A stretch of DNA of 64,000 bases from contig JAUZPR010000004.1 of the NCBI GenBank assembly GCA_030705825.1, positions 222 through 64,221 of the forward strand, in the 5' to 3' direction. Shown here piece after piece: positions 2,155 to 24,656 of this stretch. The translations under genes were made by a program, and so were the position numbers. The DNA is from Bacillota bacterium (GTDB taxonomy: Bacteria; Bacillota; Clostridia; Acetivibrionales; JANLFN01). Numbering within the stretch: position 1 is the first letter of the stretch; every line of letters starts with the position of its first letter. The notes beneath the pieces were generated by a model. The model had not been told where the DNA came from. It made no database searches and worked only from the letters and a program-made list of their open reading frames with translations.

Positions 2155-4257
2155 ATGAGATATAGAGGATTGAAGTTTAGATTTTCAGTTTTGCTTCTTG
2201 TATTTCTTATTATCTTTTTCACACAGTCATTCGCATTCACAATCTCGGACATACCGGACAATACCATAAAACTTGGTGATGACTTTTTTGACCTAAATTC
2301 CAATGCAATGAACGACCCTGCCGGTACTATTCCAATCCAGTCTCTATTGACACCCGGAATAAACCAGAATAGGGCATACTTTAAAATAGGCGGAAACTGG
2401 TATGACTTATTCAACCTGAATGGAGACCAGACACTTACACCTGAAAATGCAATGACTGCAGACCAGGTAAATGCAATCCAGGGCTTCGGTAAATGGTATA
2501 AAGCCGGTGACGAGGTTGTTGTTTTATCAGACCGTGCAATTAAAGAAATACCAGTATTAAAAGAAATAGCATCCGATAAGGGAACCGAATACGCCTCAAT
2601 TAATTTGCCAAAGCAGGTGAAGGTGGTTCTGGATGACAACAGTACAATTGATGTCGGAGTAACATGGGATGCAGGTACTCCACTGTATAACAAGGATGTT
2701 CCGGGACGTTACCAGTTTTCAGGAACACTCGCTTCAGTTGAAGGTGTTACAAACCCAAATAATTTAAAGCCTTCAATAGAAGTAGAGGTAGTTATACCCA
2801 ATTCTGATCCTAATCCAAACACTACCATGAACACATCATCAGGAACTACACTCTTTGAGTTTGATAACCAATCAGACTGGGTGAGTTCAACATCAGCCAA
2901 TATAGAAATTGATCAGGCAAATTTTGTTTCGGGAACCGCATCCTCCGCATTATCTCCCTCGACACCTATTGCTATTTTAGATGCTACCGGGACTGCCACA
3001 AAGCAATCCTTTTTCCAGGTACAGACCAGCGGTAATATCGGAGACAAATTGAAGGACATGCAGAATATTGAATTCAATATATATGTACCTGATAAAACCA
3101 AATTTGACTATATGGTAATCAAATTTTACACCAATGATTTTCATAGCTGTTTCTATCAGAACGGAATTGGTAATTGGGAGGTTTCTAACGGCTGGAACAA
3201 GATAAGAAGGTCGGTCGGTGATTTCGAATACGTAGATAGTTCAGGAACTGCAGGTGTAAGTCAAATGTCTGCCATGAGCAGCATGAACAGTCTGGTACAA
3301 ACTTCGGACGGCATTCCGGCAGTAAATGATCTCAAGACAAGCATGCAGAAAAGTATAAGCTTATTGAATAATACCATATACAAACAAAAAGCAGGAAAGA
3401 AATCGGCTTTGTTAAGTTCTGCAGCAGCTTCCGGCAGTTCATTCTGGGGCAATATCTACAGTATGGACGTTGACATTGCTTTTACTAATCCTAATTTGCC
3501 AACTGTTAATTTTGACAAAATCGCAATTAATGTTGCCGGTAATGCCAAATTGTTATTTACATTTGATGATTCCTGGTATGATGTAAAACAATATGCAGAG
3601 CCGATATTAACAGCCAACAATTTCAAAGCTACCCTTTGGACTTATAAAGACGGTGTACTTAATGAATCGGGAACAGGACCTTTAAATATTATGAGTGTTT
3701 CAGACATAAATTCTCTTTATGCAAAGGGATGGGATGTAGGCAATCATACCGTCGACCATCCTGATGACATTACTGCACTGTCACCGGAAAATGTAATAAG
3801 TGAATATAGGGATAATCAGACATGGCTTGACCAAAATGGCTGGACCAGAGCTTCGCAGCATGTGTGCTATCCGTCAGGAAGCTACAATGAACAGGTGATA
3901 AATCTTTTGAAGAGCATAGGGGTGAAGTCTGCGAGGACAACAGAATATGGAATTCAACCTACACCGGTATTCAATATGTACCGGCTGAAAATAGTATTTA
4001 TCAGCAGGGATACACTGGTTTCCGATATTGAAAAACAAGTGGATGAAGCCGTTGCAACAGGTTCAACTATAATTTTCATGCTTCACAGGGTGGAAGACAG
4101 TCCAATTATGACAAACGATACTGAAGGTTACAATGCACTAGCTGTTTCTACAGCCAATTTCCAAGCTATTGTAAATTACGTCAAACAGCTGTCGGATGCA
4201 GGTTCCATAAGTGTAGAGACCATCAGCCAGTGGTATAACGAATACATTGGTAACTAA
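2155..4257 (+). CDS. Secreted multidomain polysaccharide deacetylase (C-terminal NodB/CE4 domain).
   Basis: RBS aaaggggg lies upstream of the ATG. The N-terminus has a hydrophobic signal-like segment (LLLVFLIIFFTQSFAF). There is an Ig-like segment (VVLDDNSTIDVGVTWDAGTPLYNKDVPGRYQFSGTL). The C-terminal domain carries the NodB motifs FTFDDSWYD, GNHTVDHPD and CYPSGSY. Confidence 0.8.
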   Translation: MRYRGLKFRFSVLLLVFLIIFFTQSFAFTISDIPDNTIKLGDDFFDLNSNAMNDPAGTIPIQSLLTPGINQNRAYFKIGGNWYDLFNLNGDQTLTPENAMTADQVNAIQGFGKWYKAGDEVVVLSDRAIKEIPVLKEIASDKGTEYASINLPKQVKVVLDDNSTIDVGVTWDAGTPLYNKDVPGRYQFSGTLASVEGVTNPNNLKPSIEVEVVIPNSDPNPNTTMNTSSGTTLFEFDNQSDWVSSTSANIEIDQANFVSGTASSALSPSTPIAILDATGTATKQSFFQVQTSGNIGDKLKDMQNIEFNIYVPDKTKFDYMVIKFYTNDFHSCFYQNGIGNWEVSNGWNKIRRSVGDFEYVDSSGTAGVSQMSAMSSMNSLVQTSDGIPAVNDLKTSMQKSISLLNNTIYKQKAGKKSALLSSAAASGSSFWGNIYSMDVDIAFTNPNLPTVNFDKIAINVAGNAKLLFTFDDSWYDVKQYAEPILTANNFKATLWTYKDGVLNESGTGPLNIMSVSDINSLYAKGWDVGNHTVDHPDDITALSPENVISEYRDNQTWLDQNGWTRASQHVCYPSGSYNEQVINLLKSIGVKSARTTEYGIQPTPVFNMYRLKIVFISRDTLVSDIEKQVDEAVATGSTIIFMLHRVEDSPIMTNDTEGYNALAVSTANFQAIVNYVKQLSDAGSISVETISQWYNEYIGN

Positions 4258-7133: not shown

Positions 7134-8522
7134 TCAATCCAAATTCGGGAACATCATAAATGCATATTTTTTGATATTTTTAAAAAATATTACTAGAAAT
7201 ACAATTGATATAATAAGAGAAAGTATTGATGCAGTCATAAAGCCTATGCATATTAAGTTTAAATGAACTAGATAAGTGATAATAGTAAGCAGTGCATTCA
7301 ATGCTAAATAAATCAAAGATATAAGAAAAGCAAAATTCCTGGCATCAAAGTAAAGTATTACTATCATTGAAACATACATTAATAATGAAGAATTCATACC
7401 TAAAGTTAATATACAAAAGGTGTAATAGGAAGGAAAGCCTGTTTCAATATTTTTGCAGATTATAAGAGGCAATGAGAGCATAATTAATGTTATAATTGTC
7501 TGTATCAAAGCCAGTTTAATATAGCAATATTTTACAGTAACTTTTAATGAATATAAATTATAATCTATTTCATCCAAAGTACCATTGTTATTTATAGATA
7601 AATAGAATGCATTGCAAGAGGTATGCAATGAGGTTTCAAATCTTATACTGAAATATACCAATCCGGGAATGAAACCCAGGACAGCAAGATAAAAAGGCAG
7701 ATCAAATCCGGTCTTAACTGTCAGGAACCCGTTAATAAAACTTCCGGTATCGGTAAATCTATAAAAGAGGGATAAAAAGTATAGGCTGAATGTATAGCAA
7801 AATCCTATAGTAATTAGGGAGGGATATTTGATAATATATCTTGTCCACTCCATAAAGTTGCCGTTTCCTTCTCCAAAAGCTTTCCTGATTTGATAAATCA
7901 GTATAATAGCGGTCAAGGCAAACCCTGAATCAAAGCTTAATAATATATAGTTCAAAGAAAATTGTGGCGGCACCTGCTTAATAAACAGCAACATCAGGAC
8001 AATAAGTATATTTCCTGCAAGAAAACCTAGAGAAATGGATTTATAATTTTTCACGGCAGATAGGTAAATGGTTTCCAAGCTTATAATACTTACTATTGAA
8101 TATAAGATTGACAGCATAATTCCATATTGGTATTTCATTCCTGCAAAAAGTATTAAGCTTATTGAAGCCGCTATGCTTAAAATAACTGCAAAAACCATGG
8201 CACCGTACAGTGATGGCATTATCTTTTGAAACTCCTTTTTGTGAAGGCAATCTGAAACATACCTTGTAAGAACCATTGAATATATGGAAGTCAGGATTGT
8301 TGATAAAATAAAGGAGTACGTTACTGTGGTTAATATCCTTTCAGAAGGAATTCCGGAGTATTTTGAAGTACCTAATATAAGTTGAATAATGAATACGGCT
8401 ACTATACACATAAACATTGGCCCATTAAGTACTATTACTGCATAGCCATAGGACTTTACCGAATGTATCAGGCCATGTTTCCTGTCAATCATATTTCTTA
8501 ATTTAAATCCGATTCCAGCCAT
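7134..8522 (-). CDS. pelG: PelG-like exopolysaccharide export/polymerisation membrane protein.
   Basis: ATG at 8522 gives MAGIGFKLRNM, the characteristic PelG N-terminus. RBS GAGGTG lies 7 nt upstream; the ORF-track TTG at 8528 is less likely. The protein is polytopic and hydrophobic throughout. It sits directly downstream of a PelF-like gene. Confidence 0.75.
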   Translation of the reverse strand: MAGIGFKLRNMIDRKHGLIHSVKSYGYAVIVLNGPMFMCIVAVFIIQLILGTSKYSGIPSERILTTVTYSFILSTILTSIYSMVLTRYVSDCLHKKEFQKIMPSLYGAMVFAVILSIAASISLILFAGMKYQYGIMLSILYSIVSIISLETIYLSAVKNYKSISLGFLAGNILIVLMLLFIKQVPPQFSLNYILLSFDSGFALTAIILIYQIRKAFGEGNGNFMEWTRYIIKYPSLITIGFCYTFSLYFLSLFYRFTDTGSFINGFLTVKTGFDLPFYLAVLGFIPGLVYFSIRFETSLHTSCNAFYLSINNNGTLDEIDYNLYSLKVTVKYCYIKLALIQTIITLIMLSLPLIICKNIETGFPSYYTFCILTLGMNSSLLMYVSMIVILYFDARNFAFLISLIYLALNALLTIITYLVHLNLICIGFMTASILSLIISIVFLVIFFKNIKKYAFMMFPNLD

Positions 8523-8544
8523 TACCAATCACCTCTTAAACTAT

Positions 8545-9966
8545 TCAGGACAATGCTTCTTCGTATACCTTCTTATATTCTGCCTGCATGTTTTTTATTG
8601 TGTAATATTTACTGACTCTCTGCTTTCCAACCTCACCCATCCTTTTACGCATAGATTCATCCAGAGCCAAATGTACAATTGCTTTGGCTATTGCAGTGGA
8701 ATCCATAACAGGTACAAGGATACCAGCTCGGTCTTGGCCTTGGCTGGCACCGTAAACTAATTCACTGCAGCAGCCTACATCGGTAACAATAATGGGCTTG
8801 GAATAAGCCATGGCTTCAAGTATGGAAAGGGGCTGGCCTTCACTGATACTGGTCAGTATAACAATATCCATGGAAAATAAGGTGTGCAAATAGGTGTTGT
8901 AATCAACTCTTTTTGTAAAAACAACATCACAGATATTCTCTTTTTTTATATAATCCAATACATATTCAAAATATTCTTCATCTTCATTAGTAGGTCCCAT
9001 AATAACCAACTTCAATGCGGGTACTTCTTTTTTAGCCAGTTTAAAGGACCTGACCATTGTTATAATATCCTTTATAGGTACTACTCTGGCAATTGCACCT
9101 AATACTATACTATCATCATAAAGCTTGTTATCGAAGGTCTTGTTATAATCCTCAACATTCATACCGTTGGGAATAATCAAAGTTTTTTGTATGTCTGCAC
9201 CTATTCCAATCTGAATACTTCTGTTTCTTTCAAATTGAGTTACTATTCTTTGTGAAAATTCATATGCACATTTTGACATTGAAACGAAATATTTTACCCA
9301 AAGCTCTTTTGCATATCCCATTATTAAATTGGTCTTTATTATTTCCTCCTCTCTTTCCCTTGTATAAATGCCATGCTCTGTTAAAATAAAGGGTTTCTTT
9401 TTAAAATAATTCATTTTAGATGCAACAATACCAGGGAACCCGGCTGAGACACAATGGTATACATCAGCTTCGGGAACGTCCTCCGAAAGGACATAAAACT
9501 GGTATATGTACATTGTTCTGATTGACCACAAAAAATCATTGAACGGAGCATTCGGAAAGTCTGTTTTATATATATCCTGTACTATTTCATAAAATTCAGA
9601 TGAATTAAAAAAGTCAATCAGATTATTTCCCTTGATTCTTTCAATAAATTCAAAAAGCATAGGCCAATCGGAATATCTTCCTGAAAAATGATTCGATAAA
9701 GCCTCTCTTTCACGATTGTCTTTGATAAAATGACGAGAAAGCCAGTGCACTTTCTTTTTTACAGGGGTATCCAAAAAGATTTCTTTAATATGTATCATAT
9801 TATCCGGTATTTTACAGCTGTATTTACCTTTGTCTTTTTCTTTTGCACCTATGGCAAATGTTACAAATTGAAGGTCGGTAAAGCACTTGAGGAAAATATT
9901 CAACCAGCTGGTAATACCCCCGATCATATAAGGATAACTTCCTTCAGTAATTATGCATATCTTCAT
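8545..9966 (-). CDS. pelF: PelF-like GT4 glycosyltransferase.
   Basis: Preferred start MKICIITEGSYPYMIGGITSW (ATG 9966, GAGGGA RBS) matches the PelF/DUF3492-type N-terminus. The C-terminal GT-B motif is SISEGQPLSILEAMAYSKPIIVTDVG. Confidence 0.8.
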   Translation of the reverse strand: MKICIITEGSYPYMIGGITSWLNIFLKCFTDLQFVTFAIGAKEKDKGKYSCKIPDNMIHIKEIFLDTPVKKKVHWLSRHFIKDNREREALSNHFSGRYSDWPMLFEFIERIKGNNLIDFFNSSEFYEIVQDIYKTDFPNAPFNDFLWSIRTMYIYQFYVLSEDVPEADVYHCVSAGFPGIVASKMNYFKKKPFILTEHGIYTREREEEIIKTNLIMGYAKELWVKYFVSMSKCAYEFSQRIVTQFERNRSIQIGIGADIQKTLIIPNGMNVEDYNKTFDNKLYDDSIVLGAIARVVPIKDIITMVRSFKLAKKEVPALKLVIMGPTNEDEEYFEYVLDYIKKENICDVVFTKRVDYNTYLHTLFSMDIVILTSISEGQPLSILEAMAYSKPIIVTDVGCCSELVYGASQGQDRAGILVPVMDSTAIAKAIVHLALDESMRKRMGEVGKQRVSKYYTIKNMQAEYKKVYEEALS

Positions 9967-23227: not shown

Positions 23228-23413
23228 GGTATTACAGGCATTTAATAAAAAGCTCCACACCTATAACAATTAATAAAGTCAATATGAAAATGGAGAAAAA
23301 TAGTATGTAGCCCTTTCTGAACATCCTTATACCACCTGCAGCTTATATTTAGTGCCTATTTTATTATATGCACCCGATATAGGCCGGTTGACCGGTTAAA
23401 TAATATAATTGCA

Positions 23414-24445
23414 TCATAGAAAAACATATAACAGGAAGGCAACATAAAGAACGCCGCTGAACAATAACGCAAACGGGTTGACTGTTTTCCTAACCTTTAT
23501 CCAAACAAGATTAAAGGATGCTGAAGCAATGGCTAATATTGCTGAAGCAAGCGTAATACCCTTAAGGTTCCATGGTGTGAACAGCATTCCGAAAACAACC
23601 GGAAAACAGCTTTGAAATACCATCGCACCTGTTATATTTCCCAGCGCAAGAGTATCCTTCTTCCGCCCTGTCCATATGACCGAATTGAGCTTTTCAGGAA
23701 GCTCGGTGGCTATAGGTGTTATGATAATGGAAAGGACAAGCGGTGCCACACCCAGAATGGTTGACAAATCTTCCACATATTCAACGAACAAATGAGCGCC
23801 GTAAATAATTCCAGCCAGGGCAAGCAGTAATTGTACTACTATCCAGGTCATGCTGGTTTTAACCTTGAATATTCTGGATGCATATAAAGGATCAAGGTCT
23901 TCGCATTGGGCGCAATCATCTGAAAAGGAACGTTTGAGATATAGTATGTAGGATAGTAGAAGTACAACTGCTATTATATCCTTAAATACAACCGCGCTGT
24001 GAATAAAGGTTGTCAATACCGCTACCCCATATATTGCAAGAAAATAGCTCAAATCTCTTGTTATTACCTTCTGGTCGGCTGTCATTTTTAAAGTACGTTT
24101 TCCGAACATGGTATAAGTAATTACAGCCAATCCTGTTACAAAGAATGCAAGAGTGCCAAGCATGAACGGGGCTCCTGCTATTGCTCCGATACCAATTTCA
24201 TTTGCCTTTTCATCTGTATAATATAAAATTGCTATAATCGGTATGATAGTTTCGGGGAGCGCGGTTCCTACAGCGGCAAAAATACTCCCAACCACACCCT
24301 GGCCCATATTCAGCTTCTTTCCAAACCATTCAATCCCGTTTGTAAAAATAAAACAGGATAAGAGTATTAACGCAAGACTTGCTCCTACCATCAGAATGTC
24401 AGTAAACAAAAAATACACTCCCTTTTGAAATAATATTTTGTCCAT
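23414..24445 (-). CDS. CaCA-family cation antiporter (Na_Ca_ex, YrbG-like), placed under a Mn riboswitch.
   Basis: Alpha-repeat motifs GTALPET and ATELPEKL...GNITGAMVFQ. About 10 TM segments. The ORF-track start at 24511 lies inside the riboswitch terminator, so the first ATG after it (24445) is used, although its RBS is weak. Confidence 0.75.
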   Translation of the reverse strand: MDKILFQKGVYFLFTDILMVGASLALILLSCFIFTNGIEWFGKKLNMGQGVVGSIFAAVGTALPETIIPIIAILYYTDEKANEIGIGAIAGAPFMLGTLAFFVTGLAVITYTMFGKRTLKMTADQKVITRDLSYFLAIYGVAVLTTFIHSAVVFKDIIAVVLLLSYILYLKRSFSDDCAQCEDLDPLYASRIFKVKTSMTWIVVQLLLALAGIIYGAHLFVEYVEDLSTILGVAPLVLSIIITPIATELPEKLNSVIWTGRKKDTLALGNITGAMVFQSCFPVVFGMLFTPWNLKGITLASAILAIASASFNLVWIKVRKTVNPFALLFSGVLYVAFLLYVFL

Positions 24446-24491
24446 ATTCAGAATTATATATAATCTTAAACCCGCTATTTGAAATATGCTC

Positions 24492-24620
24492 AAAAAAAAG
24501 ACTTTTAACACAACCTTTAATAAAAAGATTATGTTAAAAGTCTCGTTACCATATTATAGGCCGTAAAGCCAGGTATTAAACCAGTATGTTGACTTTACGA
24601 TTAAACTACTCCCCTTTAAC
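24492..24620 (-). promoter_or_regulatory. yybP-ykoY-type Mn2+ riboswitch (aptamer about 24536-24619) with expression-platform terminator (24492-24544).
   Basis: The minus-strand RNA reads AAAGGGGAGUAG...GUAAAGUCAACAUAC...GGCUUUAC...AUGGUAACGAGACUUUU. This matches the conserved GGGGAGUAG, GUCAACAUAC and ..AAGAGAC.. blocks of the family. The 3' P1 strand GAGACUUUUAACA can alternatively pair with UGUUAAAAGUC, which is followed by UUUUUUUU. Confidence 0.75.
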
Positions 24621-24626
24621 AAGGTA

Positions 24627-24656
24627 ATTTTACTATAAAAGTATAATATATGTCAA
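24627..24656 (-). promoter_or_regulatory. Sigma-A-like promoter driving the riboswitch leader.
   Basis: On the minus strand: TTGACA (24656-24651), 18-nt spacer, TAAAAT (24632-24627). Confidence 0.55.

Follow-up and report, generated by a model that had tools for sequence, protein, structure and literature searches.

The leader of a transporter gene on the minus strand of the window (the whole 64,000-nucleotide stretch of clostridial DNA that was analyzed) is most likely a riboswitch of the yybP-ykoY (Mn2+) class that lacks helix P2 and acts as a transcriptional ON switch. The gene behind it encodes a 331-residue antiporter of the CaCA superfamily, similar to NCX_Mj and belonging to the subfamily of Bordetella pertussis BP3410; Mn2+ export against H+ or Na+ is the most likely function of this antiporter. 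A probability of roughly 0.8 is assigned to this combined reading. All window coordinates given below are on the minus strand.

The aptamer occupies 24533..24620, as delimited by the Rfam family RF00080, RNAalifold, covariation and a covariance model, R1, that was built from related leaders. Its helix P1.1 is formed by a 5' strand at 24620-24613 (GUUAAAGG) and a 3' strand at 24540-24533 (CUUUUAAC). Next to it lies the internal loop L1, with GGAGUAG (24612-24606) on its 5' side and CGAGA (24545-24541) on its 3' side, and then helix P1.2, in which UU 24605-24604 pairs with AA 24547-24546. Helix P3.1 (24599-24590 paired with 24571-24562) leads through L3 (ACAUACU, 24589-24583) to the P3.2 hairpin (24582-24572), and P4 is found at 24561-24548. 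An initial annotation of the stretch had recognized the class by three conserved blocks, and all three were recovered where it placed them: AAAGGGGAGUAG at 24617-24606, GUCAACAUAC at 24593-24584 and GGUAACGAGACUUUU at 24550-24536. The L1 consensus of the yybP-ykoY class, GGGGAGUAG, is present at 24614-24606, and its 3' counterpart (C)(A/G)AGA appears as the CGAGA of L1. Likewise, the asymmetric-loop consensus of L3, CAACAUAC, is represented in the P3 hairpin by the second block. The four-way junction with P2 and P4 that is canonical in crystallized members is not formed, as P2 is absent and 4-7 nucleotides connect L1/P1.2 to P3.1. The minimum-free-energy fold of the isolated aptamer is a three-way junction with P1.1 in place (-22.7 kcal/mol).

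Homologues of the CaCA protein with 47-72% identity were found in 21 of 41 related genomes, and upstream of eight of them stands the same leader, consisting of a promoter, GGGAGUAG, CAACAU(A/C/G)C, ACGAGACUUUU and a terminator. Eight aptamers were aligned by MAFFT without structural input, and the fold obtained from this alignment by RNAalifold contained P1.1 (8-9 base pairs), L1, P1.2 (2-3 base pairs), P3.1, L3, P3.2 and a short P4, with 10 compensatory pairs. Model R1, built from the 8-leader alignment and searched in the 149 genomes of the order, yielded more than 150 copies in 102 of them. In a model-based alignment of 79 copies (A2), 93.7% of the cells were paired and 23 of the 31 pairs were double-changed (298 cells), counts that are biased toward the structure because A2 was fitted to R1; the structure-blind RNAalifold result from the eight leaders agrees with them in direction. 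None of 500 shuffles of the 79 copies reached the observed covariation, and when the partners were slid by one to three columns at most 52% remained paired. Double changes were seen in 8 of 11 pairs of P3.1 and in 4 of 5 pairs of P3.2, and the covariation extends to the short P1.2 (U-A in 45, C-G in 31). L1 GGGAGUAG, the CAACA of L3 and the 3' AGA were 100% invariant in the 79 leaders. The initial assignment to the Mn2+ (yybP-ykoY) riboswitches is upheld by the best Rfam match, the invariant L1 and L3, the covariation and the families of the downstream genes. The leader is thereby supported as a probable genuine member of the class in a shortened, P2-less form, and its ligand is presumably Mn2+.

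The match to RF00080 covers 24626-24512 and scores 39.0 bits, with an E value of 2.5e-9 for a 341-nucleotide stretch and of 6.4e-9 for the whole 3.65-Mb genome, and the next-best Rfam family at the leader has an E value of 0.07. The gathering score of RF00080 is 45 bits (Rfam 15), and the riboswitch surfaces only with permissive filters; a default Rfam scan of the window at the gathering threshold returned a tRNA alone and no riboswitch. The initial annotation had proposed a cmsearch with this model as a check and named a score below the gathering threshold as grounds for giving up the assignment. Taken literally, the check failed. The score is not taken as a refutation here, because the losses map to the absent P2 and the 3' part of the model and because few control genomes pass. 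The RF00080 alignment has gaps at about 19 model positions of the P2 hairpin, which follows L1, and at about 41 of the long 3' part, and the cut-off was cleared in just 2 of 14 control genomes, though E. coli, B. subtilis and L. lactis, which have validated members, were matched. In our view, the low score has its cause in the lack of P2 and in the model. RF00080 scores the relatives in the order at 19-33 bits (19-39 when the window copy is included, all below 45), and R1, derived from eight local sequences, scores the Mn riboswitches of the order at 40-104 bits and the window copy at 88.7 bits. In the Rfam consensus of RF00080, L1/P1 is unpaired, and the model extends over a long 3' stretch.

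The first open reading frame downstream of 90 R1 matches was sorted by motif, and representatives were checked with Pfam. GDT1/UPF0016 proteins made up 29 of the 90, TerC proteins and P-type ATPases 15 each, CaCA and DedA/VTT proteins 7 each and ABC ATPases 3; Zn_peptidase_2 proteins accounted for 3 by the motif rule, with a fourth by Pfam, and 11 fell into other kinds (PilZ, a kinase-like open reading frame, an APC permease and unclassified). GDT1/UPF0016, TerC and P-type ATPase genes constitute the classic yybP-ykoY regulon. The RNA class is thus identified by function, through the Mn-homeostasis families downstream, as well as by sequence. The copies linked to these three kinds of genes score 80-99 bits with R1, and their L1 and L3 are identical to those of the CaCA-linked leaders. 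To our knowledge, DedA/VTT, Zn_peptidase_2, ABC ATPase and PilZ genes are not standard targets of Mn riboswitches. The PilZ group includes two small PilZ-domain proteins encoded downstream of a P2-less Mn riboswitch.

Folding places an intrinsic terminator at 24492..24544, with a hairpin of 20-21 base pairs (24544-24498) and U8 at 24499-24492. The terminator alone has a free energy of -24.7 kcal/mol, and compared with shuffled sequences the whole leader reaches a z-score of -7.6. Both the 3' strand of P1.1 and the 3' side of L1 fall within the 5' arm of the hairpin (GAGACUUUUAAC...), and this sharing of a strand between P1.1 and terminator is kept in all eight aligned leaders. In the minimum-free-energy fold of the full leader (-40.9 kcal/mol) the terminator is formed and P1.1 is open, and therefore termination is taken as the default state. 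In terminator-type Mn2+ riboswitches, stabilization of P1.1 by the docking of L1 and L3 leads to read-through, and the proposed mechanism follows this published logic. Transcription would begin a short way ahead of the aptamer. With little Mn2+ present, P1.1, a weak and AU-rich helix, would not be held, and its freed 3' strand would pair downstream to give the terminator of about 20 base pairs with U8, so that transcription would stop ahead of the coding region. Raised cytosolic Mn2+ would bridge L1 (GGAGUAG...CGAGA) and L3 (ACAUACU), dock the two helical legs and lock P1.1. With the 5' arm of the terminator sequestered, RNA polymerase would read through into the gene, and Mn2+ export in exchange for H+ or Na+ would relieve the Mn excess. 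The alternative pairing of the P1 3' strand in a terminator hairpin followed by U8 had been pointed out in the initial annotation, and the Mn-ON logic it suggested follows from the shared strand and the folds; in vivo, too, the direction is presumably ON.

A sigma-70-type promoter with a -35 element TTGACA (24656-24651), an 18-nucleotide spacer and a -10 element TAAAAT (24632-24627) is located at 24627..24656, as had been noted before, and agrees with the consensus at 11 of 12 positions. It is the top-ranked of nine promoter-like sites in the region, and a TTGACA...TA(A/T)AAT promoter stands at the same distance in the eight homologous leaders. Promoter, aptamer, terminator and gene follow one another on one strand and, as far as the sequence can tell, with no further promoter-like site between them. 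The open-reading-frame track of the stretch begins the gene at a GTG at 24511, a start that was already regarded as wrong; this GTG sits within the 3' arm of the terminator. A ribosome-binding site, GGGAG (24422-24418), is separated by an 8-nucleotide spacer from a TTG start codon at 24409-24407 (together 24407..24422). The 331-residue product from this TTG is collinear at its N terminus with homologues that begin MFIDAVML and MFADIFML, and database homologues have 330-334 residues, 100% coverage and the start pattern MF.D.... The true start is TTG 24409, giving 331 residues, and not 24511.

The gene (23414..24409) encodes a CaCA-superfamily transporter with two Na_Ca_ex domains, which by Pfam and by homology to BP3410 is a probable Mn2+ exporter of the BP3410 type. 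Pfam Na_Ca_ex (PF01699) matched in two stretches with 89.8 bits (cut-off 24.9) and an E value of 2.2e-25. The motif GTALPE of the first alpha-repeat is at residues 48-53 and ATELPE of the second at residues 234-239, which together with the two Pfam matches confirms the family and the repeats named at the outset. Both repeat glutamates, E53 and E239, are invariant in 15 homologues, and in both clades of the order the repeats read GT(A/C)LPET and (I/V)ATELPEK. In public annotation the family goes under the names "sodium:calcium antiporter" or "cation:H+ antiporter." The scores for the YrbG equivalogs lie below the cut-offs (TIGR00367, 78.2 versus 179.65 bits; PRK10734, 37.1 versus 432 bits). The nearest solved structure is NCX_Mj (E value 1.8e-10). 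Opposite its residues S51, N81, S210 and D240, which we take to be ion ligands, the alignment has A/C, A, E and Q, the window protein having A at the position of S51. The replacement of these positions suggests an ion specificity unlike that of NCX_Mj and YrbG.

Against BP3410, the window protein shows 35% identity and 58% positives over 285 residues (E value 3e-54), as compared with a partial sequence of 281 residues that was assembled from the machine-read Fig. S1 of PMC8546581. Both proteins contain GTALPE, (V/I)ATELPE, LAL.NI(S/T)GAM, GAM.Q, TPW and a CxxCEDL(D/E)PL loop, whereas that figure shows GTS.PE for NCX_Mj and for a homologue from C. perfringens. The identity and the shared signatures therefore place the window protein in the BP3410 subfamily. 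Transcription of BP3410 in B. pertussis starts at a promoter that precedes a yybP-ykoY riboswitch, and Mn induces the gene (Capek et al. 2021, mBio, PMC8546581). Inductively coupled plasma mass spectrometry showed cellular Mn to be about 5-fold lower with the functional form of the protein (PMC8546581). The role in Mn2+ efflux or exchange that was initially predicted for the window protein had therefore been shown for a relative in 2021, and the prediction, though in line with that work, is not new. By analogy, the substrate of the window protein is presumably Mn2+ and the coupling ion H+ or Na+. A central-loop motif, DDCAQCEDLDPLY (residues 168-180, 23869-23907), matches EECLDCEDLEPLK of BP3410 and may be a cytosolic metal-binding site; homologues of clade B have D..SH.ELE.LY in its place.

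The riboswitch was found before CaCA genes in eight further genomes of the order, including a locus in one genome (G001) that is not among the 90 sorted matches. Six closer homologues from unrelated assemblies (65-76% identity), none of which had been used to build R1, were also sampled, and an R1 match of 45-80 bits lies directly upstream of five of the six. These five come from Aminipila butyrica, a Caldicellulosiruptoraceae isolate and three metagenomic contigs; no R1 match was found upstream of the Thermoanaerobacter siderophilus homologue. In a maximum-likelihood tree of 71 proteins, the window protein clades with riboswitch-linked relatives from other Clostridia, including those of Aminipila and Caldicellulosiruptoraceae. 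CaCA is a recurrent minority target of this riboswitch subclass. In one genome of the order (G021, contig C11, 40146-42067), a single Mn riboswitch is followed by a GDT1/UPF0016 gene and directly after it by a CaCA gene, an arrangement that looks like a two-exporter operon.

The genome that contains the window has a completeness rating of 100%, and R1 and RF00080 each find one Mn riboswitch in it. No second one turned up, the region ahead of the P-type ATPase gene on contig C35 included, and the P-type ATPase homologue is without a riboswitch. A tblastn search of the genome detected no homologues of the riboswitch-linked UPF0016, TerC, DedA-type and Zn_peptidase_2 kinds. A sole riboswitch on a CaCA gene, together with the absence of UPF0016 and TerC, fits a role of the CaCA protein as the putative Mn-responsive exporter of the organism. 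Contig C236 carries, at 7892-8878, another CaCA gene of this subfamily, with 51% identity and no riboswitch. On the tree, this copy groups as an orthologue of riboswitch-controlled copies in sister genera, and the window copy belongs to a different clade.

Several observations weigh against reading the pair as a Mn2+ riboswitch with its Mn2+ exporter. Besides the RF00080 score below the gathering threshold, the bias of the A2 pair counts and the partial BP3410 sequence, they concern mainly the distribution of the riboswitch over the subfamily. When 80 subfamily loci of many phyla were searched, R1 matched at a Peptococcaceae locus and otherwise only at the two loci known before, and RF00080, applied to 40 of the 80 across other phyla, matched at one; the link between riboswitch and CaCA gene is therefore confined to certain Clostridia plus Bordetella. 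On the tree of 71 proteins, the riboswitch label needs nine changes, at least six of which are forced by well-supported branches; gain or loss of the regulatory link has therefore occurred more than once. The closest homologue in the order (72% identity) lacks the riboswitch, as does the genome's own CaCA paralogue. The substrate may differ among subfamily members, and not every one need carry Mn. A grouping of the riboswitch-linked CaCA proteins as one clade with its own alpha-repeat signature was considered and rejected, since the signature is family-wide and the label needs at least 6-9 changes.

It is unlikely, though it would accommodate this distribution, that the riboswitch senses Mn2+ and the transporter moves another ion secondarily to Mn stress, whether by Na+/H+/Ca2+ exchange or by export of Co2+, Cd2+ or Fe2+. 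Such a function would agree with the scarcity of Mn riboswitches before subfamily members in other phyla, most of which are without one, and with the presence of the riboswitch class before DedA/VTT, Zn_peptidase_2, ABC ATPase and PilZ genes, which are not obvious Mn exporters. Furthermore, the riboswitch-less relatives at two loci, L129 of T. siderophilus (2733-3748) and L132 (1759-1813), have a Na+ riboswitch (RF03071, 56.5 bits) and/or a DUF1646 gene downstream of them, which hints that some CaCA members act in a sodium context. Yet BP3410, of the same subfamily, alters cellular Mn about 5-fold (PMC8546581), and a genome that lacks UPF0016 and TerC and has its only Mn riboswitch on the CaCA gene is hard to explain if that gene had no part in handling Mn.

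Distinctly improbable is a fold that senses Ca2+, or Ca2+ with Mn2+, before CaCA genes, combined with a true Ca2+/cation antiporter that expels Ca2+. The public name of the family, sodium:calcium antiporter, points this way, the two alpha-repeat glutamates that bind Ca2+ in NCX_Mj are retained, and the mgtA RNA of S. pneumoniae, another member of the class and a further caution for the Mn2+ assignment, binds Ca2+ tighter than Mn2+ in vitro, its ATPase transporting both ions (PMC6649816). It is Mn2+ and not Ca2+, however, that activates mgtA read-through and expression (PMC6649816), and the related BP3410 is induced by Mn and exports Mn (PMC8546581). Nor do the CaCA-linked leaders form a separate group of RNAs, given the high R1 scores of the GDT1/UPF0016-, TerC- and ATPase-linked copies and their identical L1 and L3, and in one genome a single riboswitch drives the UPF0016-CaCA pair. 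The four changes relative to NCX_Mj (S51 to A, N81 to A, S210 to E and D240 to Q), at positions presumed to be ligands, likewise speak against a Ca2+ exchanger. A leader composed of a promoter and a constitutive attenuator or terminator, with a chance likeness to yybP-ykoY, is hardly credible. It would explain why RF00080 stays below its gathering threshold and is absent from a default scan, but it is contradicted by the genome-wide E value of 6.4e-9, by the more than 150 homologues of the RNA, whose helices all show compensatory changes, by the invariance of L1 and L3 and by a regulon of Mn-exporter families.

A wider proposal, which we hold tentatively and at somewhat less than even odds, is that the whole GT(A/C)LPE/ATELPE branch consists of exporters of Mn2+ (transition metals) and not of Ca2+/Na+ exchangers, the specificity arising from the replacements S51 to A/C, N81 to A, S210 to E and D240 to Q. 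The branch spans at least 10 phyla and is uniformly annotated as "sodium:calcium antiporter." If the proposal is true, the clostridial riboswitch linkage would be evidence independent of Bordetella BP3410, and the window protein would be the sole riboswitch-controlled Mn exporter of its genome, replacing the missing UPF0016 and TerC. For the riboswitch-linked members of the branch, at least, the data argue that they are probably Mn2+ exporters misnamed in the databases. On the RNA side, RF00080 with its gathering score misses P2-less, terminator-coupled Mn riboswitches, which are the form usually met in the order (102 of 149 genomes); standard pipelines therefore do not see the Mn regulons of these organisms. 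The riboswitch class, its three-way-junction variant and the pairing with CaCA are all already published; the value of the case is mainly for annotation, and no new question is opened.

Among known systems, B. pertussis BP3410 is like the window gene a riboswitch-led CaCA gene of the same subfamily with a promoter upstream of the riboswitch, the promoter in the window being a predicted one. The Bordetella host belongs to the Pseudomonadota and the window to an uncultured clostridial lineage. The Bordetella BprK/yybP-ykoY leader is recognized by Rfam with an E value of 8.5e-15 (PMC8546581), whereas the RNA of the window is P2-less and sub-threshold. In addition, the B. pertussis gene carries an inactivating 10-residue duplication that the window gene does not have, and Mn export by BP3410 was shown by inductively coupled plasma mass spectrometry, whereas for the window protein it is predicted from the sequence. 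The alx riboswitch of E. coli, a yybP-ykoY family member, is also a P2-less three-way junction (PMC12153347), in which, as in the window, L1/P1 is almost directly joined to P3. It is, however, translational and pH-coupled, controls a TerC protein and has been described as confined to Enterobacterales (PMC12153347). The window riboswitch is a plain terminator-type element with a 4-7-nucleotide linker before a CaCA gene, and its subclass is spread over the clostridial order.

The S. pneumoniae mgtA riboswitch shares with the window the three-way junction, the terminator platform and a target from a transporter family otherwise tied to Ca2+. In this case P4 is the missing helix, replaced by UNAAA, and not P2, and the target is a PII-type ATPase (PMC6649816). 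NCX_Mj (PDB 3V5U/5HWY) and E. coli YrbG resemble the window protein in the CaCA fold, the two Na_Ca_ex domains and both repeat glutamates, but have GTSLPE/GTSLPE where the branch of the window protein has GT(A/C)LPE/ATELPE, and N81 and D240 are A and Q in the window protein. The L. lactis yoaB and B. subtilis yybP/ykoY (mswA/mntY-type) Mn2+ riboswitches, reportedly the subject of work by Price and by Dambach in 2015, are said to be transcriptional ON switches in which Mn2+-dependent docking of L1 and L3 stabilizes P1.1 against the terminator. They have in common with the window the consensus sequences GGGGAGUAG of L1 and CAACAUAC of L3 and the competition of P1.1 with a terminator, but differ in their four-way junction, with a P2 hairpin of about 20-25 nucleotides, and in their targets, a P-type ATPase, TerC and YybP.

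Of the neighbors of the CaCA gene, one encodes an AMP-binding ligase and is divergent, another an MmyB-like regulator and is convergent, and a third a glyoxalase; none of them points to an operon. A 30-residue hydrophobic open reading frame lies downstream of the CaCA gene at 23232-23324, and no convincing terminator was seen between it and the CaCA stop codon. Its membership in the CaCA unit was considered and dropped, as it is not conserved beside the closest homologues; no counterpart was found at the seven closest homologue loci. Many of the riboswitch-less CaCA genes of clade B have a tRNA gene directly upstream, a conserved synteny seen at seven loci.

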